Below are positions 8,338 to 26,143 of a stretch of 26,143 bases of DNA, in pieces. The notes beneath the pieces are model-generated. The model had not been told where the DNA came from, did not search any database, and saw only the letters and a list, made by a program, of their open reading frames with translations. Every line of letters starts with the position of its first letter. Positions within the stretch are counted from its first letter, which is position 1. The stretch is from positions 34,702 to 60,844 of the forward strand of contig CAYRPF010000009.1 of NCBI GenBank assembly GCA_964426185.1. The letters run 5' to 3'. The DNA comes from an uncultured archaeon. GTDB taxonomy: Archaea; Asgardarchaeota; Lokiarchaeia; Sigyniarchaeales; Promethearchaeaceae. Made by a program: the position numbers and the translations under genes.

Positions 8338-9060
8338 ATGTTTTCAACACCAGGACTTGGATATGACCGTGCGATCACCATATTTTCTCCCGATGGCCGC
8401 CTTTTTCAGGTAGAATATGCCATTGAAGCGGTAAGAAGAGGAACTACGGCCGTGGCGGTTAAAAATAAAACTGGAGTTGTTTTTGCAGTGGAAAGACGCA
8501 ATTTACCACTTCAAGAACATCTCGGAAGCGAAAAGCTATTTAAAATCGACGATCACGTAGGTGTTGCTATTTCGGGACTTACTGCTGATGCACGTACTCT
8601 TATTGATCAGGCTCGAGTTCACGCTCAAGTTAATATTTTAAGTTATGATGAAGAAGTTTCAGTGGTCGAAACAACCCGAGATCTCTGTGATCAATGTCAA
8701 TTATACACTCAAAATGCTGGTGTACGCCCCTTTGGTGTTTCTTTATTGATTGGGGGGGTAGATGAAGATGGGACAGTGAATTTATATCTTACCGATCCAT
8801 CTGGTGCCTTTTGGGGCTATAAGGCTTGTGCAATTGGAAGTGGTTCTACTCAAGCGCGAGAATATCTCGGTAATGAATATTCAGAAAGCATGTCATTTGA
8901 GGAATTACAACTTCTAACCATCCGAACCTTAAAAGAGGTAATTGAAGGAGATTTAGATTCAAATCGATTTGAAATTGCCGTAATTGATGCCAAGGATCGA
9001 AAATGGAAGCTTCTTTCCATCAAAGAAAATCAAACCCTTTTAGAAAAAATTACAGATTAG
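8338..9060 (+). CDS. psmA: Proteasome alpha subunit
   Basis: GYDRAITIFSPDGRLFQVEYA signature, RPFGVSLL, TDPSG. Confidence 0.98.
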   Translation: MFSTPGLGYDRAITIFSPDGRLFQVEYAIEAVRRGTTAVAVKNKTGVVFAVERRNLPLQEHLGSEKLFKIDDHVGVAISGLTADARTLIDQARVHAQVNILSYDEEVSVVETTRDLCDQCQLYTQNAGVRPFGVSLLIGGVDEDGTVNLYLTDPSGAFWGYKACAIGSGSTQAREYLGNEYSESMSFEELQLLTIRTLKEVIEGDLDSNRFEIAVIDAKDRKWKLLSIKENQTLLEKITD

Positions 9061-9076
9061 AAAAAATTACAGATTA
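9040..9076 (+). repeat. 17-bp tandem duplication spanning the psmA stop codon
   Basis: TTAGAAAAAATTACAGA at 9040-9056 and 9057-9073, followed by TTA. Confidence 0.85.
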
Positions 9077-9269
9077 AATCTTTTTTTCGAATTTTTCTTC
9101 TATTATTGAAATTCTTAAATAACATTCTTGCTTTATTTAAATAGAAACGGTAAGAACAGATATTGCCCCGATCGAGCAGCTTATAAGATAAAGTCTGTTA
9201 TGATTTTACAAAAATCGGTCAAATTTGGGCGATATTTCAATCTATAGGGAATAATTGGAGAAAAGTAGG

Positions 9270-10061
9270 ATGTCACACGCACGGGGTGGACCCAAAGGGA
9301 ATTTCGATTTGGGGAAATATATTATTGTCAAATTAGAAAAAGCCAATCGAAACTTTGAAATGATTGCGGATCCGAATGAGGCGTGGAAAGCAAAACAAAT
9401 CATCAAGAAATTACTGCAAAAAGAACCTGAACATCAGCTCCAAGTTGAGGAAATATTAAATAATTCCGATATTGATTTGGAAAGCATTTTTCCAACATAT
9501 GATTTCTTCTTAAATGTTAAAAAAGGAGATCGCGTTACTGAAGCAGATTTAGAAAATGCTTTTGCCACTACTGATCCTCGCACTATAGCAGCCTATTTTC
9601 TGATAGATGGTGATTTTGCTTGGACCAAAGCCCAGCGTGATCAATGGTTAGAGAAAAAACGGAAGCAAATTATCAACATTTTAGCTCGAAATTCGATAAA
9701 TCCCCAAACAAAGCGTCCTCATCCCCCCAATCGTATTGAAAAAGCCTTAGAAGAAGCACGAGTATCTATTGATATCAATAAACCAGCAGAAGAACAAATT
9801 GATGCAATTGTAAAACGAATACAAACCGTTATCCCCATTCGGATTGAAACTATTCAGATGGCTGTGAAAATACCAGCAGAATATGCTGCGAAAGCCTATA
9901 ATACAGTGGAGCAATATGCTCAAGTCAAACAATCAGAATGGCAAACGGACGGATCTTGGATAGGTATGATTTCCTTACCTGCTGGATTACAGATGGAATT
10001 GTTAGATAAATTAAATAAATTGACTCACGGACGGATGCAGAGTAAATTAATCCAGAAATAA
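9270..10061 (+). CDS. sbds: Ribosome maturation factor SBDS/Sdo1
   Basis: NFEMIADP, INPQTKRPHPPNRIEKALEEA, IPI, LPAG...KLNKLTHG; position between psmA and rrp4. ATG at 9270 preferred over TTG at 9255. Confidence 0.95.
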   Translation: MSHARGGPKGNFDLGKYIIVKLEKANRNFEMIADPNEAWKAKQIIKKLLQKEPEHQLQVEEILNNSDIDLESIFPTYDFFLNVKKGDRVTEADLENAFATTDPRTIAAYFLIDGDFAWTKAQRDQWLEKKRKQIINILARNSINPQTKRPHPPNRIEKALEEARVSIDINKPAEEQIDAIVKRIQTVIPIRIETIQMAVKIPAEYAAKAYNTVEQYAQVKQSEWQTDGSWIGMISLPAGLQMELLDKLNKLTHGRMQSKLIQK

Positions 10062-10324
10062 TTATCACTGGTTTCATTTCATTCTCGTGATAGTTCTTGT
10101 GAGTAGCTTTGACAAAAAAATAGGTGAAAGCTAACACACCAAGCAGGCTGTGATGACCTCATACCACTTTTCCTATTTCTTCCCGTTCAATAAAAATATA
10201 AAAAAAATCTAAATGCGGTCTATTACCATCATAGGAGCTTGACAACTGATTAATCGCTGATTGTCAACTTCAAATTTTGAAGATAAATAGACGTATTAAG
10301 AAAAAACAAACACAGTGAACCTAT

Positions 10325-11071
10325 ATGTCCGCGGAGAATAAACAAATACGCGAAATCGTTACTCCAGGTCAAGTAATTGCCTCTGATCCCGAGTTAATGG
10401 CTGGAAGAGGGGCGATAAGAGAAGCAAATGGGGATATCGTCTCTGTTTTCGTTGGATTGAAAGAAATTCGGGGAAAATATGTGAATGTAGTCCCTTTAAA
10501 TGGATTGTACAACCCTCAAATTGGAGATAAAGTCATTGGCCGAGTGATTGCAAAAACTCCTGTGAAATTTTTACTGGATATCAATTCCAAATTTTTAGGC
10601 ATTCTTAAACCATCTGATGCCTTTAAACGTTCTCATCGTACTCGAGGATATCCCAAAACCATGGGCACTTATCGACTCCCTCGGGAAAATGATATGGATA
10701 AGTTGAAAATGGGTGATATGCTAATTTGTAAAGTTCTTTCAGGATCACGCACAGAAGAACCCACTTTAACTAGTTTAGGTCAAGAATTAGGATTGATCAC
10801 AGAAGGTTTAGTTATTGCAATTGCTTCGACTAAAATCCCCCGAGTAATCGGAAAAAAGGGGAGTATGATTGCACTTTTGAAAAATTTGTTACATTGTAAA
10901 ATTTTTGTTGCTCAGAATGGGCGAATCTGGATACACGGTCGAAATCCAGAAAGCGAACGGTTATTAATTGAAGTAATTTATAAAATAGAACGTGAAGCTC
11001 ACACGACCGGCTTAACCGATCGAGTAAAAGCTTATATTATTAAAGAAAAGAAAAATAGAGGTATCAAATAA
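10325..11071 (+). CDS. rrp4: Exosome RNA-binding cap subunit Rrp4 (S1 + KH)
   Basis: IVTPGQ, YNPQIGDKVIG (S1), KIPRVIGKKGSMI (KH GxxG), VAQNGRIWI, EREAHTTGLTDRV. Confidence 0.96.
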   Translation: MSAENKQIREIVTPGQVIASDPELMAGRGAIREANGDIVSVFVGLKEIRGKYVNVVPLNGLYNPQIGDKVIGRVIAKTPVKFLLDINSKFLGILKPSDAFKRSHRTRGYPKTMGTYRLPRENDMDKLKMGDMLICKVLSGSRTEEPTLTSLGQELGLITEGLVIAIASTKIPRVIGKKGSMIALLKNLLHCKIFVAQNGRIWIHGRNPESERLLIEVIYKIEREAHTTGLTDRVKAYIIKEKKNRGIK

Positions 11072-11073
11072 CA

Positions 11074-12153
11074 ATGCCAATTTTAGTACCTGAACCTCAT
11101 GATGAGGTATGCTTTCGAGAAGACGGAAAAAGGTTAGACGGGCGCGCTGTTGATGAATTGCGCCCTTTTTCTTGCGAAGTTGGGGTTATAAAAAATGCAC
11201 AAGGCTCTGCACTTGTTCGACATGGAAAAAATCTGATTTATGCTGCTATTTACGGACCACGGGAAGTTCATCCCCGCCATTTAGCACGACCAGATCGTGG
11301 TATATTACGAGTCTATTATAGGATGGCTACTTTTTCGGTTCATGAGAGAAAAAGTCCTGCTCCGAATCGACGTGAAAACGAAATTTCTAAAGTAATTCGG
11401 GAGGCATTAGAACCAGTATTATTTTTAGAAGCCTATCCTGATTCTCAAATTGAAGTATATATAGAAGTAATTGCCGCCGATGGAGGTACTAGATGTGCTA
11501 GTACTACTGCTGCATCCTTGGCTTTAGCAGATGCTGGAATTCCCATGAAAAGTATGGTGGTAGGTGTGGCTGCAGGAAAAGCCCAAGGTAAGGTCCTTCT
11601 GGACTTAGGTGATAAAGAAGATAAGGTGGGACAAGCTGATATTCCATGTGTAGTGGTGATGAAAGATAAATCGATTTCACTTCTACAATTTGATGGAGAA
11701 ATGACTTTGGAAGAAATGAAACTCGGCTTTGAATACGTTCTTAAAGGAGCGGAAATCATTTATCAGAAACAATTAGAAGCATTACGTGAAAAATATAATA
11801 AAATTTCACGCCAAGCTGAAATTGAAGATGCAGAATTAAGCAAGGAAACTCCTAAAGAAGAAAAAACAGCATCAGAATCTACAGATACTGCGGTTTCTCC
11901 CGAATCTTCTGATATATTTAAGAGTGATGTGGAAGCAGAATCTGCTGAAAATACCAGATCTGCCGAAATTAATGAAACTCCTGAAGCATCTGAGACCCCC
12001 TCAACTGAAGGATCCGAAACAAAAACATCCCAGGAAGATGTTTCTTCCGTAGGTAAAGAAGCAAAAGAAGAAAATACACTTTCTGAAGAATCGGCTCCAT
12101 CTGAAGTACCCCCCCAAGCCGGTGAGGACAATCCCACAGGAGATGATAAATAA
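11074..12153 (+). CDS. rrp41: Exosome catalytic subunit Rrp41 with long acidic C-terminal extension
   Basis: RLDGRAVDELRP, YGPREVHPRHL, YRMATFSVHERK, ADGGTRCA, LLDLGDKED...ADIP. Confidence 0.96.
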   Translation: MPILVPEPHDEVCFREDGKRLDGRAVDELRPFSCEVGVIKNAQGSALVRHGKNLIYAAIYGPREVHPRHLARPDRGILRVYYRMATFSVHERKSPAPNRRENEISKVIREALEPVLFLEAYPDSQIEVYIEVIAADGGTRCASTTAASLALADAGIPMKSMVVGVAAGKAQGKVLLDLGDKEDKVGQADIPCVVVMKDKSISLLQFDGEMTLEEMKLGFEYVLKGAEIIYQKQLEALREKYNKISRQAEIEDAELSKETPKEEKTASESTDTAVSPESSDIFKSDVEAESAENTRSAEINETPEASETPSTEGSETKTSQEDVSSVGKEAKEENTLSEESAPSEVPPQAGEDNPTGDDK

Positions 12154-12983
12154 TGATGGATATTAACGATGTTGTTAGCAATTTAGAACGAAATTACATC
12201 TTAAAATTATTAAAACAAGGCAAGCGAATTGACGGTCGCGGACTTTTTGAATATAGAGAGGTTAAAATAAAAACGGGATTTATTCCCAAAGCGGAAGGTT
12301 CAGCTGATGTCTTTTTAGGTGATACTCGCGTTATGTGCGGGGTAAAATATGATATTGGAGCACCATTCTCAGATAATCCCGACAAAGGGGTATGCACTGT
12401 AATGACAGAATATGTTCCAATTGCTTCCCCTATGTTTGAACCCGGACGACCTGATGAAGTTGCTATTCAATTAGCACGAGTAGTTGATCGTGGTATTCGC
12501 CATACTAATTGCATTGATTATAAGAAACTCTGCATTAAGGAAGGAGAATATGTCTACATTCTGTTTGTAGATTGTTATATGATGGATTATTTCGGTAATT
12601 TAACTGATGCTTCTGCCATTGCAGCGATTGCAGCATTATTAAACACAAATTTACCCGGTGCTAAATTGAATGAAAAGGGTGAACCTGAATGGGATGGAAC
12701 ATATGCACCATTGACGATCTACGAAATTCCGTTAAGTATTAGTTTTGGAAAAGTAGGCGATGTGATTTTCGTCGATCCTAATTTATCGGAAGAAATGGTG
12801 TTAGATGGTTCTATTGCATTTGCTGTAGACGAGAAGAAGCAAGTAACTTCTATTCAGAAATATGGAAGTGCTACTTGGACTGTAAATGAAATAATGGAAA
12901 CATCGAAGAAAGCCATTGAAATTGCTGATGAATTACGAGCAAAATTGAAATTACGCCAACATGTTCAACAATCGAATTCATAA
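12153..12983 (+). CDS. rrp42: Exosome subunit Rrp42
   Basis: RIDGRGLFEYR, KAEGSA, FEPGRPDE, LARVVDRGIR, VDPNLSEE; TAATG overlap with rrp41. Confidence 0.96.
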   Translation: MMDINDVVSNLERNYILKLLKQGKRIDGRGLFEYREVKIKTGFIPKAEGSADVFLGDTRVMCGVKYDIGAPFSDNPDKGVCTVMTEYVPIASPMFEPGRPDEVAIQLARVVDRGIRHTNCIDYKKLCIKEGEYVYILFVDCYMMDYFGNLTDASAIAAIAALLNTNLPGAKLNEKGEPEWDGTYAPLTIYEIPLSISFGKVGDVIFVDPNLSEEMVLDGSIAFAVDEKKQVTSIQKYGSATWTVNEIMETSKKAIEIADELRAKLKLRQHVQQSNS

Positions 12984-13099
12984 TTTTTTTATTTCAAGTA
13001 ATTTTTCGAGGAATTTTTGAGTAAATCGGAAAATTCACAAAATTTTTTTAATTTGCTTCTTTCTCCTACTTATTCTTATTGCAAGTTGAAGTGAATTTT

Positions 13100-13387
13100 A
13101 TGGCTAAAACAAAAAAAGTGGGTATCTCAGGAAAATTTGGCCCAAGATATGGTTCTACCTTACGTAAACGATGGAATAAAGTAACTGAAAAGCAAAAAGG
13201 ACCTACCAAATGTCCTAAATGTGAATCTAAAATAAGAAATATGAGAAAGTTTGTTGGTGTGTGGGAGTGTCCTAAATGCGGAGCGCGTTGGACTGGTGGA
13301 GCATGGGAGAGCAGTACTGCCCGTGGAAAAGAATCTCATCGAATTGCCACACGATTAGCTCGTGAAACTTTAGAAGCAGAGAAGTAA
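13100..13387 (+). CDS. rpl37ae: 50S ribosomal protein L37ae (eL43)
   Basis: GKFGPRYGSTLRK, CPKC...GVWECPKCG, GGAW. ATG at 13100. Confidence 0.96.
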   Translation: MAKTKKVGISGKFGPRYGSTLRKRWNKVTEKQKGPTKCPKCESKIRNMRKFVGVWECPKCGARWTGGAWESSTARGKESHRIATRLARETLEAEK

Positions 13388-13439
13388 ACCTAAGACTTCA
13401 CTTGTTTTTTCATCTTTTTTCTATGAAGCGTGAATCGGT

Positions 13440-13694
13440 ATGCAGATTACAACCGAGGTTAAATTTATTTTTAATACAATCGAGCATCGGGATATTTTTT
13501 TTAAAAGCTTTTTACCTGAATTCAAGGGATTCAATGCTAAACGTTCTTCTTGGCAGATTTACCCTATTAATCCTGATTCAGCACATATCAATTTCCAGAT
13601 TCAAGCAGAGGATGCCACTGCATTTCGTGCTACCATAAATTCTTTGATTCAATTTGCAAGTGTGGTTGAAAAAACACTAAATCTTGTTGAATAA
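13440..13694 (+). CDS. pcc1: KEOPS complex subunit Pcc1
   Basis: 84 aa; SFLPE, KRS, IQAEDATAFRATINS; usual position in the exosome superoperon. Confidence 0.85.
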   Translation: MQITTEVKFIFNTIEHRDIFFKSFLPEFKGFNAKRSSWQIYPINPDSAHINFQIQAEDATAFRATINSLIQFASVVEKTLNLVE

Positions 13695-14426: not shown

Positions 14427-15977
14427 TCAAATGATTTTAGTTATGATTTCTCGCAATTGATTTAATGAAAAAGGTTTTTTTAAGACGTCTATAAATCCGT
14501 ATTTTGATGGATTGGCCATAATTGGGTCGTTGGAATACCCGCTTGCAACAATGGCGCGAATATCTGGATCGAAAAATCTCAAATCTTGAATAACTTCTTT
14601 TCCACCTAAACCTCCTGGAATAGTGAGATCTAAAATTACAAGATCGAATTTGTGGTTATTATTGAATGCTTCTTTATACAATTGAATCGTATCTTCTCCA
14701 TTTTCGGTAAAAACCGTTTCATAGTGCAGATGTTGCAAGAGTTTTTTCAAAATTCGCTGAATTGCTTTATCATCTTCTAGAATTAAGATTGATTGCTTTG
14801 TTTCTGCTTTCTTGTTATCTTTTTTTAATTCCTTCTTTGAGGTCTTTAGGTGTTTTTTTAAAAGTGGAGGTTCTTCTTGTACTGGAAGATATACAAGAAA
14901 TTCGGAGTATGAATTATTCGGGTCCTCGGATGTATGAAATCCAATATAACCGTTGTGGTTTTTAATAATAGAATAGACTGCGGCCAATCCCAAACCATAT
15001 CTTGATTTTTTTGTGGAAAAATACGGTTCAAAAATATTGGTTTGTATCTTTTCGGGAATTCCTGTTCCTTCATCTCTGATAATGATTTCAATATATTTTC
15101 CTGGTGGAATTAAAATTCGGTTTAAGTTGCCAAAAGGCTTAAGAACTTGATTGTTAAATTCTCTATTATAAAATTTTATGAAAATTTCGCCCCCGTCTGG
15201 CATGGCTTGATCGGCATTCATAACTAGGTTTGAAATGACTTGTGAGATTTGGTTAGGATCCACAACTACAGGCCAGAGATTATGGTCAAAATCTAAAGTG
15301 CATCTTGATTTCGAACCTCTAAGAGAAAAGATCGCAGTTTCAGTAATAATCGGGGTAAGATCTACTTTAGATTTTATTGGTTGACCACCAGTGGCGAATG
15401 TTAGTAATTGTGTGGTTAGATTTTGTGCCCTGTGAATAGATTTCTCTGCATCTTTCAAGGTTGCTTTAATAAATTCCAAATCATTTTCTTCCAAAGCTAA
15501 AGTTATATTTCCTAAAAGAGCTGTAAGAATATTATTAAAATCATGCGCAATCCCCCCAGCTAACCTACCAATGCTCTCTAATTTTTCTTGATTAAATTGG
15601 ATTTGTGTCATTTGTTTAAGTTCGCTGGGCTTGAGGCAGAGTAAAATTGTAGAATTAGAAGTGTTTGTATCTAATCTATTTAAAGTAGCTTGAAACGGAA
15701 TTATATTCCCAGAAAAGTCTATAAGTTCTATTTTGAATGATACGGTTTCGATTTCACCTAGTTGAATGGATTTGAATAAACTCTTTTTATTTAAATGACT
15801 GTTCGGGGAAATAATTTCAAATATATTCTTACCTATTAGTTTCTCTCTAGTTGCCTCTAACTTCTTCAAACCTTCTGAATTAATACCAAGAATTTCGTGA
15901 GATTCTAAATCAAATAAGATATGGATTACCGAAGAATCATTATTAGGAGATGTTTTATCTTGCAGAATTGAAGAAAT
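14427..15977 (-). CDS. Hybrid sensor histidine kinase (PAS-HisKA-HATPase-REC), CckA/NtrB-like; start uncertain
   Basis: H-box LAGGIAHDFNNIL, N-box QVISNLVMNADQAM, G1 DEGTGI, F-box FEPYFSTK, G2 GLGL; receiver ILILEDD...LVILDLTIPG...KKPF. Frame stays open to 15992 and adds the PAS N-terminus. Confidence 0.9.
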   Translation of the reverse strand: MSSILQDKTSPNNDSSVIHILFDLESHEILGINSEGLKKLEATREKLIGKNIFEIISPNSHLNKKSLFKSIQLGEIETVSFKIELIDFSGNIIPFQATLNRLDTNTSNSTILLCLKPSELKQMTQIQFNQEKLESIGRLAGGIAHDFNNILTALLGNITLALEENDLEFIKATLKDAEKSIHRAQNLTTQLLTFATGGQPIKSKVDLTPIITETAIFSLRGSKSRCTLDFDHNLWPVVVDPNQISQVISNLVMNADQAMPDGGEIFIKFYNREFNNQVLKPFGNLNRILIPPGKYIEIIIRDEGTGIPEKIQTNIFEPYFSTKKSRYGLGLAAVYSIIKNHNGYIGFHTSEDPNNSYSEFLVYLPVQEEPPLLKKHLKTSKKELKKDNKKAETKQSILILEDDKAIQRILKKLLQHLHYETVFTENGEDTIQLYKEAFNNNHKFDLVILDLTIPGGLGGKEVIQDLRFFDPDIRAIVASGYSNDPIMANPSKYGFIDVLKKPFSLNQLREIITKII

Positions 15978-16135: not shown

Positions 16136-16945
16136 CTAAGAATTTAATTCTTCAAAATCTCCGATTTCTAAATATTCCTCCATACTTTTTGATTCAAGCA
16201 GTAAATAACCCGAATCGTTTATTCCCTTCAATTTAAAACCTTTTCCCTCTTTACCTTCAATTTTTGTGCCCAAATTATAAAGATTTTGATTGTATTCTTT
16301 TTTTAGTTGATTTTTGGTCTTTGAAGAAAAATTTGTAATTACATTTTTCCATATCTCCGCCAGAATGGTCGGTATATTCTTTTTTGCAAAATTTTGAATA
16401 TTTACATGATAATCAATCAAATCAGAAACTGAAACGGTGGTATTTTTTAAATTTTCAGGAAAATTAGTCGAAGAATTATTAAAATTAATACCCATTCCAA
16501 TTAATAAAATATGTTTTTCGGGAGTAGAAATAACTTCTAATAATATTCCACCGAGTTTACGAAGCTTATTGATTCTATTTTCTGAGATAATAACTAAATC
16601 GTTTGGCCATTTAATTTTTACAGGAATGTGAAATTCTTCAGAAATCATTCTCTTAAGAATGCTTACTACAGCGTAATGTAGAAAGATAAATTGCTGTGTT
16701 GAAAGAATATTGGGAAGTGGAATGGCTAAAGTCCCCCAAAAACCTCCTTCGGGAGAAAACCAATCATCATTTTTTCTTCCCCTACCATGATGCTGAATTC
16801 TCGCGGATAAAAACACTGCTTTTTCGTTCGAATCTTGAATAAATGGAATGATTGCATCTTGGGTTGAATTTACTTTATCTAAGAAGATATATCGAAGTGG
16901 AGGAGGCGGTAAACGTGAAAGATGTGAAGGAAGTGAAGGATTCAC
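16136..16945 (-). CDS. birA: Biotin-protein ligase (group I, no HTH)
   Basis: VNSTQD, QHHGRGR...WFSPEGG, IKWPNDL, KLGGIL, IGMGIN. Confidence 0.92.
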   Translation of the reverse strand: MNPSLPSHLSRLPPPPLRYIFLDKVNSTQDAIIPFIQDSNEKAVFLSARIQHHGRGRKNDDWFSPEGGFWGTLAIPLPNILSTQQFIFLHYAVVSILKRMISEEFHIPVKIKWPNDLVIISENRINKLRKLGGILLEVISTPEKHILLIGMGINFNNSSTNFPENLKNTTVSVSDLIDYHVNIQNFAKKNIPTILAEIWKNVITNFSSKTKNQLKKEYNQNLYNLGTKIEGKEGKGFKLKGINDSGYLLLESKSMEEYLEIGDFEELNS

Positions 16946-17114
16946 ATTTAATTTAATATTATTGATGGCAAAAAGATTCTCATTTCATTCCTACTCGGAA
17001 AAGTGTGCTTAGTTTTTTATTAATTTTTACATTCAGATTGCTGATTCCTAAATATTTTCGTTTTAACCAATATCTCTTCAACTACTTTTACAATGTGGAT
17101 TTCTCGAAGTTTGT

Positions 17115-17126
17115 TTTTATATAAAA
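17115..17126 (+). promoter_or_regulatory. TATA box for carboxyltransferase/megasynthase operon (possibly leaderless)
   Basis: TTTTATATAAAA centred about 27 nt upstream of ATG 17148, in the divergent birA/carboxyltransferase intergenic region. Confidence 0.5.
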
Positions 17127-17147
17127 TAACATTTATTTAAATCAATA

Positions 17148-18725
17148 ATGATTTTAAAAAAAACTAAAAAGGAACTAGATCCATCCTTGGTTCAGCTTTC
17201 TTCCTTAGATTCACTTAGAAGACAGTCTTTAAACGGTGGAGGCTCCCAAAAAATCGAAAACCAGCATAAAAAGGGAAAATTGACCGCACGTGAAAGGATT
17301 GAACTGTTAGTCGATCCTGGTACATTTATAGAAATCGATGAATTTGTGATGCATCGGGCCATCAAATTCGACATGCAGCAGCAAAAATATCTTGGGGATG
17401 GTGTGGTAACTGGATTTGGACTGATTCACGGGCGAAAAGTGTTCATTTATAGCCAAGACTTCACCGTAATGGGGGGTAGTTTGGGAAATGCACATGCTAG
17501 TAAAATTTCAAAGATTATGGACTTAGCCATAAAAAACGGATGCCCTATAATAGGACTTCTCGATTCTGGGGGCGCGCGCATTCAAGAGGGTGTGGATTCA
17601 TTGGCCGGTTTTGGCGAAATTTTTCATCGTAATGTGCAAGCCTCCGGTGTGGTGCCACAAATTTCGGTCATTCTGGGCTCATGCGCTGGAGGGGCCGTTT
17701 ATAGCCCGGCTTTAACGGATTTCATCATTATGGGTGGGAATCATTCATATATGTTCGTAACTGGTCCGCAAGTTGTTGAATCTGTAACTAATGAAAAAGT
17801 TTCCTTTGAGGAATTGGGTGGCAAAGAAATACACGGAAAAACTTCAGGTGTTGCTCATTTGACTACTGCCACTGAAGAACAAGCATTAGACTTAGTAAAA
17901 ATCTTACTTTCTTATCTGCCCTCAAATAATCTGATGGATCCTCCCATAAATCCAGATTTTAATGAACCAGAAAATAGTGCCAATTTGAATAATCTCATTC
18001 CCAAAAAAGAGAATGAACCCTATGATATGATTATAGTAATTAAAGGAATTGTAGATGAAAATTCATTTTTCGAAATATTTCCACAATACGCGCCTAATAT
18101 TATTACTGGTTTCGCTCGATTGGAAGGAAATTCCATTGGGATTATTGCAAATCAACCCTTATCCTTAGGAGGGGCAATTGACTTTCATGCTTCTGATAAA
18201 AGTGGACGATTCATTCGATTTTGTGATGCATTTAATATCCCGTTAATTACTCTGGTTGATGTCCCAGGTTTTATGCCTGGAGTCAATCAAGAACATGCCG
18301 GCATCATTCGTCATGGTGCAAAAATGATTTATGCCTATGCAGAAGCTAGCGTTCCTAAAATTACGATTATTACTAGAAAAGCATACGGAGGTGCTTATAT
18401 TGTAATGGCTTCTAAACATCTAGGTGCTGATATGAATTTTGCTTGGAATACGGCTCAAATTGCCGTAATGGGAGCTGAAGGTGCCTGTAAAATTCTCTAC
18501 CGAAAAAAGATCAAAGCTTCACCTAATCCTAAAATTGCTTTGCAAAATTATATTACGGCTTACAAGCAAGAATTTTCTAATCCATATCAAGTTGCAGAAT
18601 TAGGTTATGTGGATAAGGTAATTTATCCCTCAGAGACACGTTCAATAGTTATTAATTCACTTAAATTTCTCACAAATAAACGTGAAAATGTTCCAAAACG
18701 CAAACATGGTGTGTTTCCAGTCTAA
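17148..18725 (+). CDS. Acyl-CoA carboxylase carboxyltransferase subunit (PccB/AccD/MmdA family)
   Basis: GKLTARERI, GDGVVTG, QDFTVMGGSLG, DSGGARIQEG, GSCAGGAVYSPALTDF, DVPGFMPG, RKAYGGAY, AVMGAEGA, KRKHG. Confidence 0.96.
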   Translation: MILKKTKKELDPSLVQLSSLDSLRRQSLNGGGSQKIENQHKKGKLTARERIELLVDPGTFIEIDEFVMHRAIKFDMQQQKYLGDGVVTGFGLIHGRKVFIYSQDFTVMGGSLGNAHASKISKIMDLAIKNGCPIIGLLDSGGARIQEGVDSLAGFGEIFHRNVQASGVVPQISVILGSCAGGAVYSPALTDFIIMGGNHSYMFVTGPQVVESVTNEKVSFEELGGKEIHGKTSGVAHLTTATEEQALDLVKILLSYLPSNNLMDPPINPDFNEPENSANLNNLIPKKENEPYDMIIVIKGIVDENSFFEIFPQYAPNIITGFARLEGNSIGIIANQPLSLGGAIDFHASDKSGRFIRFCDAFNIPLITLVDVPGFMPGVNQEHAGIIRHGAKMIYAYAEASVPKITIITRKAYGGAYIVMASKHLGADMNFAWNTAQIAVMGAEGACKILYRKKIKASPNPKIALQNYITAYKQEFSNPYQVAELGYVDKVIYPSETRSIVINSLKFLTNKRENVPKRKHGVFPV

Positions 18726-18767
18726 TTTTTTCTTTTGCTATTAATAATAATTTGATTAATCTAAATA

Positions 18768-18772
18768 GGTGA
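18768..18772 (+). promoter_or_regulatory. Archaeal-type ribosome-binding site for the megasynthase
   Basis: GGTGA 4 nt before ATG 18777. Confidence 0.6.
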
Positions 18773-18776
18773 TATT

Positions 18777-21700
18777 ATGAAAAAAATACATGAAATTCAA
18801 AAACTTTTGGGTAATTCTGTTCCAATTTGGGGATATAATCCTCAAGGGTTGAAAAATATGGATATTTTGTTGAGTATCTCGAGAAATAGTGGAATTGGGT
18901 TATTTAATACCGCAACCTTTTCAATCCAAGATATTAATGAAATCTTAATTCAAATCTCTCAAAAATTAGATGAAACAGCATATTGGGGTATTTTAATACA
19001 TGAAGATAGTATAATTCCACGTCTTATATTTCCATCATCTAGAATAATTGTTATTTGCTCGTTTTCTCCTTCTTCCGCCAATCTTTCATTATTACAGCAA
19101 AAAACAGTGATGATTGGGGCCGAGGTACTTACAACAATTGAAGCTAAGGAAAAATCAGGTTGGGCTGATTTTTTCCTAGTTCGGGGAAATGAAGCAGGAG
19201 GTGTCGTGAGTAACATTAATTCTTTCATTCAAATTCAAGAATTTCACAAAATGGGATATAGTTTTATTATTGAAGGCGGTTTTGGTATATTTAATGTTGG
19301 AGCTGCCCTTGTTGGAGGTGCATTCGGAGTAGTCTTTGAGTCTCAATTGTATTTATTGAAGGAATCACCTCTTTCTTCTGCATACAAATCATACTTAGTT
19401 TCACTTCAAGAGAACGATTTCTATTTGGCAGTCGAAAATGAAATGTTTAATTATCGTTTAATAGGAAAATTAGCAAACAAATCGATTCGAAAAATAAAAG
19501 CTCAAGAGAAAGCATTCTATCAATATCTCATCAGTCAAGATGAAAATATGTCTCGTAATTTTTTCGAACAGCATTTTAATGCTTATCTTGATAAGATTTT
19601 CTCAGAAAAATCGCGTATTCCTGACTGGACTTCAGACAATCCCAAACATGCTTTTATGCCTTGTGATCATGGTATAATTTTTGCTCGATATGTAGCAGAA
19701 TGTTATGAAGACATTGCTGGATTTATTCAAGGCTTGAAAAACCTGATCAAACACCAATACAATCAGATTAAAACTAATTGGCCTTTTCAAGAATGTAGCC
19801 CAATCGCGCAATTATTAAATATCAAATATCCAATAATCCAAGGCCCAATGGCGAATATAACTGAATCTTTGGAATATGCTCAAGTTATTGCAGAAAACGG
19901 CGCATTGCCAACATTTGCACTTGGTGGTTTAATGGATCATGAAGCAGATCTGTTATTGCAGAAAGTTTCGCAATCTCCCTTACAAAACAAATCTTATATG
20001 GCAGGAATAATCGGGTTAGAAGTAGTTAAAAAGCGTCGAAATGCTCAATTAGAATCAATCAAAAAATATAAAGTTCCTTTTACCTTAATTGCAGCTGGCT
20101 CGGTTGAGCTGGCCAAACAAGTCATTCGGCAAGGGGAACGGGTGTTTTTACATACTCCAGCTCTGTCTATGTTTCGAGAAGCAATAAAAAATGGAATAGA
20201 ATTTATGATTTTAGAGGGCAGTGAATGTGGTGGTCATATTGGGACTCTTTCATCTTGGGTTTTATGGGAAAACGTATTAGAATATTGTGTTCAAGAAAAA
20301 AGTAATCTACCAGAGCGAATGAATGTTATTTTTGCAGGTGGCATTATCGATTCCAATAGTAGCACTATGGTTGCAATGTTACTTGGGGAACATCTTGATC
20401 AAATAAATCCTGCTATTCAGATGGGAACTGCATATTTATTCACTCAAGAAATAGTTACCTCAAAAGCTCTTTCTTACGTTTATCAAAATCTATTGTTAGA
20501 TCATCAAACAACAAGAGTTATTGGAGCAACCGTTAACACCAGAGCCAGGGTTATACCTTCTTTATTTACTTATCTTACAATTAAAAAAGAATTTGAACGT
20601 ATTACTCAAAATTTACCCATTTCGAAGCGTAAAGATTTATATGAGAAAGATAATCTGGGTGCACTTCGAATTGCCGCTCAAGGTGAAATTTGGAATGCTA
20701 AACATGTTCCTGGGACTGGAACCACCCAATTTCTCCCGATTTCTCCAGAAAAGCAGAAAATATCAGGGGCATTTATGACTGGAGAGATTATTTCCCTTCG
20801 TAATTCGGTCGTTTCAGTTAAGAATCTCCATTATGATATCGTAAAGGGGGGATTTCATCACCTTTCGGACGAATTCTTAAAAAGATTTACTTCATCTACT
20901 AAAACGCCCCATATTATCCAAAATAGAGAAATAATTGCCAATCAAGAAATTTCTATTGATTCTCGTGTAGCAATTGTGGGATTGGGGGGTGTATTTCCTG
21001 ATTCTAATAATATCACTGAATTTTGGCAGAACATTTTAATGAGAAAGTATTCAATATCTGAAGTTCCCTCAGATCGTTGGGATGCAGAAATTTATTATAG
21101 TTCCAATAAAAATGAGCCAGATAAAACGTATACAAAAATCGGGGGTTTCATCAAAAATTTTCAATTTAAACCAATAAAATTTAGAATTCCTCCACAAATG
21201 GCTGCAAGAATGGATCCTGTACAAAAATGGGCTCTAACAGCAGCAAAAGAAGCATTGTTAGATGCAAAATTCCCCGTTGATGGTAAAAAACCCATTAATT
21301 TAGCCGTAATTTTAGGAAATTCTTTAGGAGGAGAAATTCAACGGACTAATGACAAAAGAGTATTGATTCAAGAAATTAAACATATTTTTCATCAAGCCAA
21401 ACAACTTAATATGGCAACAACCTCAAGTCTCGTAGAATTGCAAACATATCTTGAAAATGAGCTGATCAAAGATATACCTCCAATAAATGAAGATACAATG
21501 CCAGGTGAATTGTCAAATATTATTGCCGGAAGAATTTGTAATATATTTAATTTAAATGGTAAAAATCTAACCACTGATGCTGCTTGTGCTTCAAGCCTGG
21601 CCGCATTGGATACTGCAGTTAAAGGTTTATTATTTGGAGATTATGATGCAGTTTTAGCAGGTGGTGCCGATAGATCCATGGATCCTGCAGTATTTATCAA

Positions 21701-24700
21701 ATTTTCTAAAATTGGGGCGTTATCTGCTAAAAAATCATGCCCTTTTGATGCTGAAGCTGATGGCTTTGTCATGGGAGAAGGCGCCGGTTTTGTGGTTTTA
21801 AAACGATTATCTGATGCAATTCGCGATAATGATAAAATTTATGCTGTGATTAGAGGAATAGGGTCATCATCTGATGGCCGAGGCAAGGGAATAACTGCTC
21901 CGAATCCCCAAGGTCAACAAAATGCCATTTTACGTGCTTATAATGCTGCAAAAATATCTATCGATGATATCCAATATATTGAATGTCATGGAACATCAAC
22001 AGTTATTGGAGATGCTGCTGAATTAAAGGTACTTCAAGATATTCTTAAAAATAAAGGTGGAAATCAAAAAATTGCAATCGGTTCAGTTAAAAGTCAAATA
22101 GGTCATTTGAAAAGTGCTGCCGCGATTGCCGCATTAATCAAAACGAGTTTGGCGTTGTATCATAAAACTATCCCTCCGTCTGTAAATTTTAATACACCCA
22201 ATCCAAAAATTGATTGGGAAAAAGCACCCTTTTATGTAAATACTCAAACCCAGCCTTGGGAACTTTCTGAAAGTTCAATTAGAAGGGCGGGTGTTTCAGC
22301 ATTCGGATTCGGAGGTACGAATTTTCATGTAGTTTTGGAAGAATATTCCCCGCAAAACTTAGATTTTCCAAAAATATCTCTGCCGGTTTACCATCTAAAC
22401 GAAAATTTTCCTTCCTTATCTCAACCTATAAATAATTTTTCAGAAATCAACGAGGATCTCTCTTTAGTTTTGATGTTCAGTGGACAAGGAAGCCAATTTG
22501 TTGGTATGGGGAAGGAATTATATCAAAAAATACCCGTAATTCGTGAAGTGTTAGATCAAGCAAATAATATTTCTCAAAATTTTGGTAATTTTGATCTTTT
22601 AAAAATTATGTTTGGGGATCCTAAGCGCTCGTTGGAAGAAAATCAGAAGATTTTAACACAGACACAGTTTACTCAACCTGCAATCTTTAGCTTAGAAATT
22701 GCTTTATATCGTTATCTCACCCAAAAAGGTCTCTCTCCAGGAATTGTTGCAGGGCATAGTTTAGGTGAATATTCTGCTCTAGTTGCTTCTGGTGTAATTG
22801 ATTTTGAACATGCAATGAAAGCTGTGATTATTCGGGGAAAAGCAATGAGCGAAGCGAGTTCAGAAATTTCATGTGGAATGGCAGCTTTATTATGTTCACC
22901 TGAACAAGCAGGCAAAATTATATCCCAAATCAATAAGGGCTTTGTGTCGATTTCTAATTATAATTCTCCCCGTCAGACTGTTATCTCTGGTGATTTGGAA
23001 GGAATTAATGAAACATTGAAATTATGTCAAACAGCTAAAATTACTGCTATACAACTAAAGGTTTCTCAAGCATTTCATTCAAAATTCGTGGCAGGTGCTG
23101 GTTCGAAATTGGCGGAATTTTTAAATTCTATTCCATTTAAGGCTCCCCGTATTCCAATTTTTAGTAATGTTTTAGGAAGTCAATATCCTCAAGATCCTCA
23201 ACGAATTAAAGATATTTTGGTGGATCAAATCACTTCGCCGGTTCGGTGGACTCAAGAAATTGAGCAAATTTACAATAAAGGTGGTCGAAGGTTTGTAGAA
23301 GTTGGACCTAAGAAAGCTTTATTCTATTTTGCAAACGAAATTCTTAGGAAAGAAAAGAACACAAAGTATTGGTTTACATTGTCTCCTAAAAATCCTGAAG
23401 TTGAACATCTTCAACAAACTATTGAGTCTGTTCTGAAAGAGGAAAATAAAATCCTTAAAAAGAAAAATTACAGAATTGATGCAAGTTTCACTTCACAAGC
23501 ATTCGATAGCAGAAGAGGTAATCCTTCAAAATCACCCCTTAGCATCTTAGAATCTGATAAGGAACTAAAAAAAATAATTAATCAACCTAATTTTGCGGAT
23601 TTTATCCGACATCAGAAAGATATTTTAATTCCTCTGTTGAAGTCCAACTTTAAGCAATATAATAAGATTCAAGTGTTGGAACAACAGCAAAGGCTAAAGC
23701 ATGAATCTCTAAACAAAATTTCATCAATTCCTTTGGGAATTACTGGAGTAGGTATTGGCCTACCGGGGAAAAATCGAAAAGTTTTCGATGATTCTAATAT
23801 TCAAGCAATTCTTCGGGGAGATAATTTTATTGAGCCTATTGATGAAAGATTAAAATATGACATTCTCGAGAAAAATATCGTTCGATTGAATAAAACTTCG
23901 ACAGGGCGCGCCTCTTTTATTGAGATTAATGACATTTCTCAAGTTATCCATCTTGCTGGTCAGATCGGGGAATTTTCTCCAGAAAAGGATTTCTTATTGA
24001 ATGAAAAATTACTCCATGCTTTAGATATTACTTCAAAATTAGCCATTGGGGCTGGATTTGAAGCGTTGAGAGATGCTGGAATCCCCTTGGTAAAATCTGA
24101 ACTGATAACTTCTACTGGAAAGAAAATTTCGGGTGATTGGGCACTTCCCGAAGAATTACAAAAGAATACAGGAGTAGTTTTTGCTTCTGCATTTCCTGGT
24201 TATGATAATTTTGCAAAGGATTTAACAACTCAACTAACTCAAAAATTTGAAAATCAAACCAAGAATCTTATTATTTCCAAGGTTAATCAACTTTTAGAAA
24301 AAATCGAACATCCCGTAATTAAAAAAGACTTACGCAAGTGGTTTGAAAAAGAAAAACAATTACTAACAGGAAAACAGCAAGATCTTCAAAAATTCAACAA
24401 ATCATTCCTATTTAGAATTCTTTCTATGGGGCATTCTCAATTTGCCCAGATAATAAAAGCTAAAGGACCAAACACTCAAATTAATGCTGCATGTGCAACT
24501 ACAACACAAGCATTTGCAATCGCCGAAGATTGGATTAAAACAGGAAGATGCAATCGTGTTATAATAATTTCAGGAGATTGTCCGACTACTAATGATCTAT
24601 TCCCTTGGTTGGGTGCAGGTTTTGTTGCAAGTGGCGCTGGTACAATCAAGCAAACATTAGAAGAAGCGGCTTTACCGTTTGGTAAAGGGCGAAATGGTTT

Positions 24701-26143
24701 GATCGCAGGAGCTGGTGCAACAGGTTTTGTAGTTGAACACCCTTCTGAGGCAAAACGAAGAGGTATAAAACCGATTGTCGATTTATTGGGGACTCATATA
24801 AGTAATAGCGCATATCATGGCTCACGTTTAGATAAGCATGATATTTGTTCTGCGATGGAACTTTTCATTTCTAAAATGGAAAATACATATGGAATTTCGA
24901 AATCTGAAATCGCACAACAAGGAATGTTCGTAAGTCATGAAACTTATACTCCTGCGCGGGGTGGTAGTTCTGAATCTGAATTGGAGGCACTTGCCTTCAC
25001 ATTTGGCTCTCAATCACATAACATTTTAATTGTTAACACTAAAGGTTTCACAGGTCACACGATGGGTGTAGGGATTGAAGAGGCAGTTGCGATAAAATCT
25101 ATTGAATTCGGGCAAATTCCTCCAATTGCAAATATTGAAAAATTAGATCCAAAATTTGAAGGTTTTAATTTTTCGAGAGGGGTTCAAGATAGAAAGAAAT
25201 ATGCTATAAGATTTGCTGCTGGATTTGGTTCACAACTTGCCATTTTATTATTTAGGACAAATACACCTGTTAATCGAAAGGATAATATAAAATACAAGTC
25301 TTGGTTAAATTCTATCGCAAGGTCAACTGAGTTGTACTTAGATGGAAGAATTTTAAAGATTAAATCTACAAAAGCTTCAAGAGAATTTCAAAAAAAGGCT
25401 ATAAAATTTTCTTCTTTGAATGTTCAAGAAAAAAATCTGCCCGTCCTTCCCTTTTTGTTAGAAATCATATCCAAAACAACAGGTTATGATGTCTCTGATC
25501 TTGATTCCAAGTATGATCTTGAAGAAGATTTGGGTATCGATACCATTAAGCAAGCGGAGATCTTTGGGCAAATCCGCGAAAAATGGCAAATACCAGAAAA
25601 TATGGATGTGAACCTTGCGGATTTCAAGACAATTGAAGACATTGTTTCGTTCATTTCAAAATTTAAGAATATAGATAGTGAAACTTCCGAAACATCGCAA
25701 GTTGTGAATCAAATTTCTTCTCCAAAAACTGAGATAGAATCGATAGAAACAAGTGTTCAAAAAATTATTGCAGAAATCACCGGATATGATGTGGAAGATC
25801 TTGAATTAGGATTTGATTTAGAAGAAGATTTGGGCATCGATACCATTAAGCAAGCGGAGATCTTTGGACAGATTCGTGAAAAGTGGCAGATACCAGAAAA
25901 TGCTGAAGTGAATCTTGCAGATTTCAGAACAATTAAAGATATTGTTTCGTTCATTTCAAAATTGAAGAATTTAGATGACGAAAGCTCCAAGACGACCCAA
26001 GTTATAAATCAAAATTCTTCTTCAAAAAATGGAATTAAATCGATAGAAACAAGTATTCAAAAAATTATTTCAGAAATCACCGGATATAATGTGGAAGATC
26101 TTGAATTAGGATTTGATTTAGAAGAAGATTTGGGCATCGATAC
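18777..26143 (+). CDS. Type I FAS/PKS-like megasynthase, 3'-truncated by window edge (>=2455 aa): ER0-ER-KS1-MAT-KS2-ACP-ACP-ACP...
   Basis: Manual translation from ATG 18777 shows no stop to the end of the window. FabK/NMO-like barrel 1 (RGNEAGGVV, ~18800-19750). Barrel 2 (YPIIQGPM, EGSECGGH, FAGGI, QMGTAYLFT, ~19800-20850). KS1 (VAIVG, TDAACASS, ECHGTST, KSQIGHLK, GFGGTNFH, ~20964-22346). MAT (FSGQGSQ, GHSLGE, QAFHS, PVRW, FVEVGP, ~22464-23350). KS2 (NAACATT, VSHETYTP, KGFTGHTMG, GFGSQ, ~23727-25256). ACPs (DLEEDLGIDTIKQAE). Confidence 0.95.
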   Translation, partial: MKKIHEIQKLLGNSVPIWGYNPQGLKNMDILLSISRNSGIGLFNTATFSIQDINEILIQISQKLDETAYWGILIHEDSIIPRLIFPSSRIIVICSFSPSSANLSLLQQKTVMIGAEVLTTIEAKEKSGWADFFLVRGNEAGGVVSNINSFIQIQEFHKMGYSFIIEGGFGIFNVGAALVGGAFGVVFESQLYLLKESPLSSAYKSYLVSLQENDFYLAVENEMFNYRLIGKLANKSIRKIKAQEKAFYQYLISQDENMSRNFFEQHFNAYLDKIFSEKSRIPDWTSDNPKHAFMPCDHGIIFARYVAECYEDIAGFIQGLKNLIKHQYNQIKTNWPFQECSPIAQLLNIKYPIIQGPMANITESLEYAQVIAENGALPTFALGGLMDHEADLLLQKVSQSPLQNKSYMAGIIGLEVVKKRRNAQLESIKKYKVPFTLIAAGSVELAKQVIRQGERVFLHTPALSMFREAIKNGIEFMILEGSECGGHIGTLSSWVLWENVLEYCVQEKSNLPERMNVIFAGGIIDSNSSTMVAMLLGEHLDQINPAIQMGTAYLFTQEIVTSKALSYVYQNLLLDHQTTRVIGATVNTRARVIPSLFTYLTIKKEFERITQNLPISKRKDLYEKDNLGALRIAAQGEIWNAKHVPGTGTTQFLPISPEKQKISGAFMTGEIISLRNSVVSVKNLHYDIVKGGFHHLSDEFLKRFTSSTKTPHIIQNREIIANQEISIDSRVAIVGLGGVFPDSNNITEFWQNILMRKYSISEVPSDRWDAEIYYSSNKNEPDKTYTKIGGFIKNFQFKPIKFRIPPQMAARMDPVQKWALTAAKEALLDAKFPVDGKKPINLAVILGNSLGGEIQRTNDKRVLIQEIKHIFHQAKQLNMATTSSLVELQTYLENELIKDIPPINEDTMPGELSNIIAGRICNIFNLNGKNLTTDAACASSLAALDTAVKGLLFGDYDAVLAGGADRSMDPAVFIKFSKIGALSAKKSCPFDAEADGFVMGEGAGFVVLKRLSDAIRDNDKIYAVIRGIGSSSDGRGKGITAPNPQGQQNAILRAYNAAKISIDDIQYIECHGTSTVIGDAAELKVLQDILKNKGGNQKIAIGSVKSQIGHLKSAAAIAALIKTSLALYHKTIPPSVNFNTPNPKIDWEKAPFYVNTQTQPWELSESSIRRAGVSAFGFGGTNFHVVLEEYSPQNLDFPKISLPVYHLNENFPSLSQPINNFSEINEDLSLVLMFSGQGSQFVGMGKELYQKIPVIREVLDQANNISQNFGNFDLLKIMFGDPKRSLEENQKILTQTQFTQPAIFSLEIALYRYLTQKGLSPGIVAGHSLGEYSALVASGVIDFEHAMKAVIIRGKAMSEASSEISCGMAALLCSPEQAGKIISQINKGFVSISNYNSPRQTVISGDLEGINETLKLCQTAKITAIQLKVSQAFHSKFVAGAGSKLAEFLNSIPFKAPRIPIFSNVLGSQYPQDPQRIKDILVDQITSPVRWTQEIEQIYNKGGRRFVEVGPKKALFYFANEILRKEKNTKYWFTLSPKNPEVEHLQQTIESVLKEENKILKKKNYRIDASFTSQAFDSRRGNPSKSPLSILESDKELKKIINQPNFADFIRHQKDILIPLLKSNFKQYNKIQVLEQQQRLKHESLNKISSIPLGITGVGIGLPGKNRKVFDDSNIQAILRGDNFIEPIDERLKYDILEKNIVRLNKTSTGRASFIEINDISQVIHLAGQIGEFSPEKDFLLNEKLLHALDITSKLAIGAGFEALRDAGIPLVKSELITSTGKKISGDWALPEELQKNTGVVFASAFPGYDNFAKDLTTQLTQKFENQTKNLIISKVNQLLEKIEHPVIKKDLRKWFEKEKQLLTGKQQDLQKFNKSFLFRILSMGHSQFAQIIKAKGPNTQINAACATTTQAFAIAEDWIKTGRCNRVIIISGDCPTTNDLFPWLGAGFVASGAGTIKQTLEEAALPFGKGRNGLIAGAGATGFVVEHPSEAKRRGIKPIVDLLGTHISNSAYHGSRLDKHDICSAMELFISKMENTYGISKSEIAQQGMFVSHETYTPARGGSSESELEALAFTFGSQSHNILIVNTKGFTGHTMGVGIEEAVAIKSIEFGQIPPIANIEKLDPKFEGFNFSRGVQDRKKYAIRFAAGFGSQLAILLFRTNTPVNRKDNIKYKSWLNSIARSTELYLDGRILKIKSTKASREFQKKAIKFSSLNVQEKNLPVLPFLLEIISKTTGYDVSDLDSKYDLEEDLGIDTIKQAEIFGQIREKWQIPENMDVNLADFKTIEDIVSFISKFKNIDSETSETSQVVNQISSPKTEIESIETSVQKIIAEITGYDVEDLELGFDLEEDLGIDTIKQAEIFGQIREKWQIPENAEVNLADFRTIKDIVSFISKLKNLDDESSKTTQVINQNSSSKNGIKSIETSIQKIISEITGYNVEDLELGFDLEEDLGID
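25441..26143 (+). repeat. Tandem 300-bp ACP-encoding repeats (2 complete + 1 partial)
   Basis: GAAGAAGATTTGGGYATCGATAC recurs at 25521, 25821 and 26121, an exact 300-nt period; units 2 and 3 are nearly identical where they overlap. Confidence 0.95.

Follow-up and report, generated by a model that had tools for sequence, protein, structure and literature searches.

Does the genome of a lokiarchaeon encode a complete megasynthase for building acyl chains on carrier domains and, if so, what would such an enzyme make? The question arises from the right-hand end of a 26,143-nucleotide (nt) stretch of an Asgard archaeal genome, here called the window (G000:C9:34702-60844, where G000 is the genome and C9 the contig). 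The region concerned (16136-26143) contains three genes, encoding a biotin-protein ligase (BirA), an acyl-coenzyme A (CoA) carboxyltransferase (CT) and a multidomain synthase. Judging from sequence and gene order, we conclude that the gene cluster to which they belong is genuine and intact and that its host is a Lokiarchaeial (Asgard) archaeon. We further propose that the synthase is probably an iterative, PfaA-like enzyme of the kind described as 'Type R', in which every step would be carried out on one polypeptide of ~3,583 amino acids (aa) and whose product would be an accessory acyl lipid.

The synthase open reading frame (ORF; 18777..26141, plus strand) comprises 7.4 kb and 2,455 open codons and reaches the end of the contig without a stop codon. 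An initial annotation, made from the sequence letters alone, had read here an ORF of more than 7.3 kb with the order ER-ER-KS-MAT-KS-ACPn (ER, enoyl reductase; KS, ketosynthase; MAT, malonyl-type acyltransferase; ACP, acyl carrier protein), and this reading was borne out by Pfam and NCBIfam models, by alignment to FabF for the second KS and by a profile match for the first ER. That first domain, ERa (aa 1-340; 18777..19796), is FabK/PfaD-like and degenerate. In hhalign, its profile, built from 15 homologues, matches that of the adjacent ERb domain (probability 98.4%, E 5e-15, 276 columns), and no match of its own was found in Pfam or among PDB sequences. ERa lacks the flavin mononucleotide (FMN) and catalytic motifs QGPMAN and ECGGH, which are present in ERb and invariant there among 15 homologues, and this argues for a dead ER-like domain. 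ERb itself (aa 341-700; 19797..20876) is predicted to be an FMN-dependent enoyl reductase of the NMO/FabK/PfaD type, with 56 bits to Pfam NMO at aa 344-593 and matches to the FabK structures 7l00 and 9pl0.

The reductase pair is followed by KS1, a ketosynthase of the PfaA/polyketide synthase (PKS) type with a C-terminal extension (aa 725-1195; 20949..22361). It matches ketoacyl-synt (243 bits; KS at aa 729-1138), Ketoacyl-synt_C (145 bits) and KAsynt_C_assoc (extension to aa 1194), covers positions 6-466 of the PfaA model TIGR02813, and contains the motifs DAACASS, HGTST and GHLK with Cys-His-His kept. The malonyl-type acyltransferase (AT or MAT; aa 1228-1530; 22458..23366) scores 158 bits with Acyl_transf_1 (aa 1233-1527) and 247.5 bits with the FabD model TIGR00128, whose cut-off is 260.9, and carries the motifs GHSLGE and QAFHS. 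KS2 (aa 1740-2200; 23994..25376) is a divergent FabF-like domain recognised by alignment to the FabF structures 2gqd and 1j3n. Its Cys, both His and Lys are intact relative to FabF and invariant in 20 diverse relatives, which argues that KS2 is a second, catalytically active ketosynthase and not a Cys-less chain-length factor (CLF). Carrier repeats of the Pfam PP-binding family begin at about aa 2220, with two complete tandem domains and a third that is cut by the contig end (25434..26143); all of these domains are on the plus strand.

Because contig C9 stops within the tandem carrier repeats, the synthase ORF is broken off there. A tblastn search with the carrier region as query located its continuation on contig C101 of the same genome. 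The start of C101 overlaps the last 19 nt of C9 exactly and in frame, and the ORF runs on for 1,133 further codons that encode the end of a carrier domain, a ketoreductase (KR), a PKS-type dehydratase (DH; PKS_DH_N) and a phosphopantetheinyl transferase (PPTase). The PPTase is an Sfp/HetI-like ACPS domain fused at the synthase C-terminus (71 bits; motifs IGIDLE and WTIKEAFSKA). The joined protein thus reads ERa(dead)-ERb-KS1-MAT-KS2-ACP(3 or more)-KR-DH-PPTase, and the domain order of the full-length orthologue in a closed genome of the same genus (G001) is identical. Scored apart, the two G000 pieces reach 772.6 and 181.7 bits with TIGR02813, and a full-length same-genus orthologue (P0005, 3,794 aa) reaches 1052.6 bits, above the cut-off of 1010.1. 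The synthase carries the sole PP-binding domain found in G000 and the sole ACPS-type PPTase in both G000 and closed G001; FabA/FabZ-type domains (PF07977) and PlsX were not found in either genome.

The genes on both sides of the synthase would supply its extender unit. The CT (525 aa; 17148..18725, plus strand) is of the single-chain PccB/MmdA type, scores 636.5 bits with Pfam Carboxyl_trans and 746 bits with TIGR01117, under that model's cut-off, and is 79% identical to its G001 orthologue. Its stop lies exactly 51 nt from the synthase ATG, the spacing given initially. BirA (269 aa; 16136..16945, minus strand; TIGR00121 100.2 bits, cut-off 83.1; Pfam BPL_LplA_LipB) is divergently oriented, as also first annotated, and occupies the equivalent place in G001, G031, Candidatus Heimdallarchaeum aukensis and other Hod and Heimdall loci. 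On C101, 3' of the synthase, lie genes for an α/β-hydrolase with a GESFG nucleophile elbow, a LeuB-like dehydrogenase, a biotin carboxyl carrier protein (BCCP; Biotin_lipoyl) and a biotin carboxylase (BC; CPSase_L_D2, Biotin_carb_N and Biotin_carb_C; 593 bits with NF006367, just below the cut-off of 597). The acyl-CoA carboxylase set is therewith complete, comprising BC, BCCP, single-chain CT and a biotin ligase, and may act on acetyl- or propionyl-CoA. The KR, DH, PPTase, BC and BCCP for which the initial annotation had recommended looking are all encoded on C101, in frame with the window, and in syntenic G001; the self-contained system of carboxylation, loading, elongation and reduction that it had envisaged agrees with the gene content of C9 plus C101 and of G001. 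The LeuB-like gene (isopropylmalate/isocitrate family; G000:C101 4319-5404, minus strand) stands between the α/β-hydrolase and BCCP genes in G000 and G001 and is absent from that place in G002, G031 and the Heimdall loci, and a role in the cluster is doubtful.

The archaeal provenance of these genes follows from G001, which is a single contig of 4,361,485 bp and encodes an uninterrupted 3,794-aa orthologue, 64% identical over the part in the window. All 18 window genes, from the aminopeptidase at the left end to the synthase, have the same order and orientation in G001. This collinearity of the whole window with a closed genome excludes a chimeric or bacterial origin, both of which the initial annotation had named as possible refutations. 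The cluster is also present in the closed chromosome of Ca. H. aukensis (CP084166; KS2 match at 490079-491443). GenBank has contained the protein from the first Lokiarchaeum metagenome onwards, labelled generically, for example as 'Pks15/1' or 'SDR family oxidoreductase'.

Among described systems, the closest kind appears, from domain content, to be the Type R PfaA-like secondary lipid synthase, in which one pfaA homologue with the order KS-MAT-CLF-ACP(3-6)-KR precedes a gene for a PPTase (Shulse & Allen 2011, PLoS One 6:e20146, PMC3098273). It is known from Koribacter, Solibacter, Elusimicrobium and Roseiflexus, and an acetyl-CoA carboxylase gene lies within the Koribacter cluster (PMC3098273). 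The window and C101, like ~120 homologues, share the KS1-AT-KS2-ACPn-KR(-DH) core, and a PPTase is encoded with the synthase, fused here and as a separate downstream gene in the published clusters. Relatives from Korobacteraceae, Bryobacteraceae and Chloroflexota, which stand in for the type strains, fall in the same KS2 tree, and in a locus labelled only Acidobacteriota (L022) the synthase is followed by BC and then PPTase, an order like that in Koribacter. The Asgard form, by contrast, fuses an ER pseudo-pair N-terminally and the PPTase C-terminally, clusters a full carboxylase, BirA and an α/β-hydrolase with the synthase, and retains the catalytic Cys-His-His at the 'CLF' position. It also has a Thr at the carrier site, which is not reported in PMC3098273, and an Asgard host, whereas archaea are unmentioned by Shulse & Allen.

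[quoted passage not shown] Unlike PfaA, it has a second active KS between AT and ACPs, and Thr in place of Ser at the carrier site. It also lacks separate PfaB, PfaC and PfaD subunits. The FabA-type DH/isomerase that characterises PfaC was not found in G000 or G001, and cis-polyunsaturation is therefore not expected. An ACP-independent route to fatty acids, based on a ketothiolase/DUF35 complex, has been proposed for archaea including Asgard archaea (bioRxiv 10.1101/2024.07.05.601840); this is likewise a proposed archaeal fatty acid source, but it is CoA-based and non-decarboxylating, works without a carrier protein and uses unrelated proteins. Literature searches on Asgard or Loki PKS, fatty acid synthase (FAS), PUFA, ACP and carboxylase returned no account of the present synthase; a cold-seep survey of biosynthetic gene clusters merely lists Asgardarchaeota among the phyla inferred to encode PKSs.

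Based on the gene content, intact motifs, synteny and distribution observed, we propose the following pathway, in which each chemical step, the Thr-linked cofactor and the product are predictions. BirA would biotinylate BCCP, and BC, BCCP and CT would together form malonyl-CoA. The malonyl-type AT would load the tandem carriers, which the fused Sfp/HetI-like PPTase would prime in cis, presumably at the conserved Thr. Chains could then be extended by the two predicted active ketosynthases, perhaps splitting the work by chain length, with each round reduced by the KR, the PKS-type DH and the FMN-type ER. Since no FabA-type dehydratase/isomerase was found, the product should be a long acyl chain that is saturated or almost so, and the conserved downstream α/β-hydrolase may release or transfer it. 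An accessory ('secondary') lipid is more likely than a bulk membrane component, because the gene is patchy in Lokiarchaeia, though common in several Heimdall-group families.

Several observations weigh against this proposal. Foremost, Thr takes the place of the cofactor-bearing Ser in all carrier domains: in the window, ACC codons at 25542 and 25842 replace the phosphopantetheine Ser, and a third site, at 26142-26143, falls at the contig end. The Ser in a D-S-[LI] motif that marks canonical ACPs is lacking from these domains, where Thr aligns with the phosphopantetheine Ser of PigH and AcpM. The S36T mutant of Escherichia coli ACP is reportedly left unmodified by AcpS, and a literature search for the LGIDT motif or for Thr-for-Ser carrier sites gave no description of a Thr-linked phosphopantetheine. 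Given the Thr, carrier priming is an assumption of our proposal. The initial description of the cluster as 'ACP-dependent' is accordingly overstated: PP-binding domains are present, but dependence on them is a prediction, with Thr at the Ser position of every copy. In addition, ERa is degenerate, and the part given to the α/β-hydrolase comes from gene order only. The carrier number in G000 (at least three, with collapsed repeats possible; 3-5 in relatives) is uncertain, as the assembly was interrupted within the repeat. Finally, no product has been described for any member of the family (PMC3098273).

How widespread the synthase is bears on what it may be for. With the KS2 domain as presence marker, 60 of the 400 Asgard genomes searched were positive. 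The gene is frequent in five families (25/31, 9/12, 10/12, 2/3 and 1/1), which named homologues and the tree point to as Heimdall-, Hod- and Kari-group lineages. In Lokiarchaeia it is rare, occurring in 10/135 genomes of one family and in 2/13 of the window's own family, there in its own genus only; in the other families among the 400 genomes the marker was not found. In some Asgard genomes there are also KS2-like proteins that stand alone; they comprise ~500-560 aa and share 43-48% identity with the window KS2 (G054:C12:46203-47567, G051:C1:136568-137914, G050:C171:9841-11166, G087:C190 and G095:C8). Most of these genomes encode the megasynthase as well; in G050 such a protein is the sole match.

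The order BirA, CT, synthase, α/β-hydrolase, BCCP, BC recurs in Loki, Hod and Heimdall loci, and carboxylase genes also adjoin the synthase in Thermoplasmatota relatives and in bacteria (Acidobacteriota, Myxococcales, an actinomycete). Further relatives occur in Chloroflexota and Gemmatimonadota, with at least 577 in a scan of species-representative genomes, and most bacterial family members lack the fused ER. The window KS2 is 43-48% identical to its nearest bacterial counterparts versus 54-61% to other Asgard lineages. Trees of KS2 were inferred with FastTree (204 rows) and IQ-TREE (95 rows), and three groupings recurred between them. The window sequence groups with its own genus inside a Lokiarchaeial clade (support 99), which is sister to a Heimdallarchaeaceae clade (support 99-100). 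All sequences that carry the fused ER pair, a small Desulfoluna-like group excepted, come together in a single group that is almost entirely Asgard, and bacterial sequences together with most from Thermoplasmatota form a separate large clade. A root placed with the KS1 paralogue nests the bacterial clade among Asgard grades; it was not relied on, as the branch is very long (5 changes per column).

The initial annotation had suggested that the cluster was acquired from anaerobic bacteria and then ameliorated. We find no support for a recent bacterial capture, because the gene belongs to a deep Asgard clade and cluster order is kept across Asgard classes; the bacterial KS2 identities of 43-48% speak against it as well. 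An old interdomain transfer, in either direction, is likely, and the patchiness within Lokiarchaeia needs many losses, or transfers within Asgard archaea. Homologues labelled Zixibacteria (P0095), Bathyarchaeia (P0076) and Methanobacteriota (P0039) sit inside the Asgard KS2 clade; the first two have the Asgard-type fused ER pair, and the third lacks it and belongs to an ER-less subgroup. These labels of metagenome-assembled genomes (MAGs) may be binning or classification errors.

A different reading of the same genes is that the synthase supplies bulk fatty acids for ester-linked or mixed Asgard membranes, as a pre-eukaryotic archaeal route. The complete reductive loop and the dedicated carboxylase would suit such a role, as would the tandem carriers, which in Pfa synthases go together with high throughput (PMC3098273), and the occurrence of the gene in a majority of the genomes in several Heimdall-group families (25/31, 9/12, 10/12). 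The lipid genes of G000 and its relatives seem at first to fit as well. G000 encodes three PlsC-like acyltransferases, and a canonical PcrB-type geranylgeranylglyceryl phosphate synthase (GGGPS) was not found in the window's genus (g1), closed genome included; a tblastn search of G000 with the GGGPS of a relative gave a best E of only 0.1. Neither point is tied to the synthase, however. Of 41 close Lokiarchaeial relatives, 40 have PlsC-like genes whether they carry the synthase or not, and a link between the two was rejected. The PcrB gap is shared by four sister genera without the synthase, two of them with closed genomes, and is therefore not linked to it; an association of the synthase with GGGPS loss was likewise rejected.

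The gap itself extends to further genera of the window's family. PcrB-family GGGPS scores 110-196 bits in 30 of the 41 relatives; it was also not found in genera g2 and g6, and the matches from g5 and g7 were weak and did not reach the cut-off, so that the genera without a clear PcrB GGGPS (g1, g2, g5, g6 and g7) include three closed genomes. Either a divergent enzyme or differing ether-lipid synthesis in this subclade would account for it. As to bulk membranes, only five of the 41 close relatives, and 2/13 genomes of the window's own family, have the synthase; PlsX was found in neither G000 nor G001, PlsY was not found in G000, and the family's bacterial members count as secondary lipid synthases (PMC3098273). 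We therefore regard the bulk-membrane role as unlikely, though less so for the Heimdall-group families in which the gene is nearly universal.

The synthase could alternatively be a specialised PKS with a PKSE-like mechanism, whose product might be a polyene, a polyol or a metabolite bearing a head group. Enediyne polyketide synthases (PKSE; SgcE, CalE8) are iterative type I enzymes with a single carrier, no ER and no second KS; they end in KR-DH-PPTase, self-prime in cis, and rely on a hot-dog thioesterase and an enediyne cassette in making a polyene. The Asgard synthase ends in the same KR-DH-PPTase order. Its two active KS domains would be odd for a plain FAS, the fused ER is missing from most bacterial members, and the sporadic occurrence across many phyla is typical of secondary metabolism. 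The tandem carriers, second KS and fused ER nevertheless set it apart from PKSE, and in the Asgard form that ER is conserved, motif-intact and fused in cis. The best family model is PfaA, with the full-length orthologue above cut-off, the carboxylase is kept beside the synthase in archaea and bacteria alike, and no tailoring or cyclase genes or enediyne cassette were seen in the cluster flanks (C101 and G001), nor was a hot-dog thioesterase. A specialised polyketide product thus seems rather improbable.

Could the Thr carriers instead be unprimable and the synthase an inactive relic? Thr at the cofactor site of every copy and the lack of any Thr-linked phosphopantetheine in the literature searched would be as expected. 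The substitution is, however, a fixed feature: LGIDT is found in all carrier copies of four Loki orthologues, that of G000 included, and Thr occupies the site in nearly all of ~120 archaeal and bacterial homologues. Homologues of 40-70% identity still keep the catalytic residues and open frames of 3,000-3,800 aa, and the PPTase fused in cis is the only one found in G000 and closed G001. Thr fixation, kept frames and residues and a cis PPTase together argue for purifying selection on a working system, and a relic is very improbable. Because Thr is fixed family-wide, the long frames and catalytic residues are retained and the protein holds the sole PP-binding and PPTase domains, we favour a working enzyme whose conserved Thr is probably primed by its own PPTase. 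That a bacterial contig was joined to archaeal core genes during assembly or binning is scarcely credible, since, although G000 is a scaffolded MAG and the window starts directly after a 100-N scaffold gap and ends with contig C9 at a repeat-induced break, the window contains no N (count 0), 18 of 18 genes are collinear with a closed genome, the cluster recurs in dozens of Asgard MAGs as well as on the closed chromosome of H. aukensis, and its composition matches that of the genome (GC 0.33-0.38 across the cluster versus ~0.34 genome-wide in G000, and even over the whole window but for a dip to 0.29 in the 16-17 kb bin, which holds most of BirA and the intergenic region).

The window has several further features. 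BirA and CT are separated by a divergent intergenic region of 202 nt (16946..17147), in which an A/T-rich TATA-like box, TTTATATAAA (~17116-17126), lies some 25-30 nt upstream of the CT ATG and may act as a promoter element. A GGTGA motif (18768..18772, plus strand) 4 nt before the synthase ATG (18777) resembles a ribosome-binding site and may function as one. Both signals had been noted in the initial annotation and were read again at the CT and synthase starts. So was the contiguity with core archaeal genes, which Pfam identifies as psmA, SBDS, Rrp4, Rrp41, Rrp42, rpl37ae (L37ae) and pcc1 (8338..13694, plus strand); this block is collinear with closed G001 at 58-94% identity. Rrp41 has an acidic, Ser/Thr/Glu-rich C-terminal tail of ~120 residues past its RNase PH domains (window 11794-12153, aa 240-359), and the G001 orthologue is longer in the tail region (380 aligned positions versus 359). 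Between the core block and BirA lies a hybrid histidine kinase/response regulator (14427..15869, minus strand; Pfam HisKA, HATPase_c and Response_reg). It is a conserved neighbour, with a syntenic counterpart of 60% identity in G001, and at most a candidate for a role in the cluster. A 126-aa protein at 6424-6804 has no Pfam match and is 69% identical to a protein at the equal position in G001.

Archaea are still described as lacking machinery of this kind, yet the genes for a complete carrier-based synthase, along with those for its malonyl-CoA supply, are real and widespread in Asgard archaea, backed by conserved synteny and closed genomes. The initial annotation saw in it a direct bearing on the lipid divide; the complete Asgard synthase stands, and the claim was overstated for a gene present in 5/41 close relatives and a family with no known product. 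The bacterial relatives are 'secondary' lipid synthases and the gene is patchy within Lokiarchaeia, which limits what can be read into it. A bolder possibility, which we hold only tentatively and think has a small chance of being right, is that Asgard archaea perform de novo fatty-acyl synthesis on a carrier megasynthase with a Thr-fastened arm and that the chains enter membrane or membrane-associated lipids. If so, the archaeal side of eukaryogenesis would already have had a route to fatty-acid lipids and, on one rooting of the KS2 tree, the Type R synthases of bacteria would have had an archaeal ancestor. The synthase gene offers a marker for choosing enrichment cultures for lipidomics, and with this gene set in hand an origin of the fatty-acid membranes of eukaryotes from the archaeal host becomes testable.

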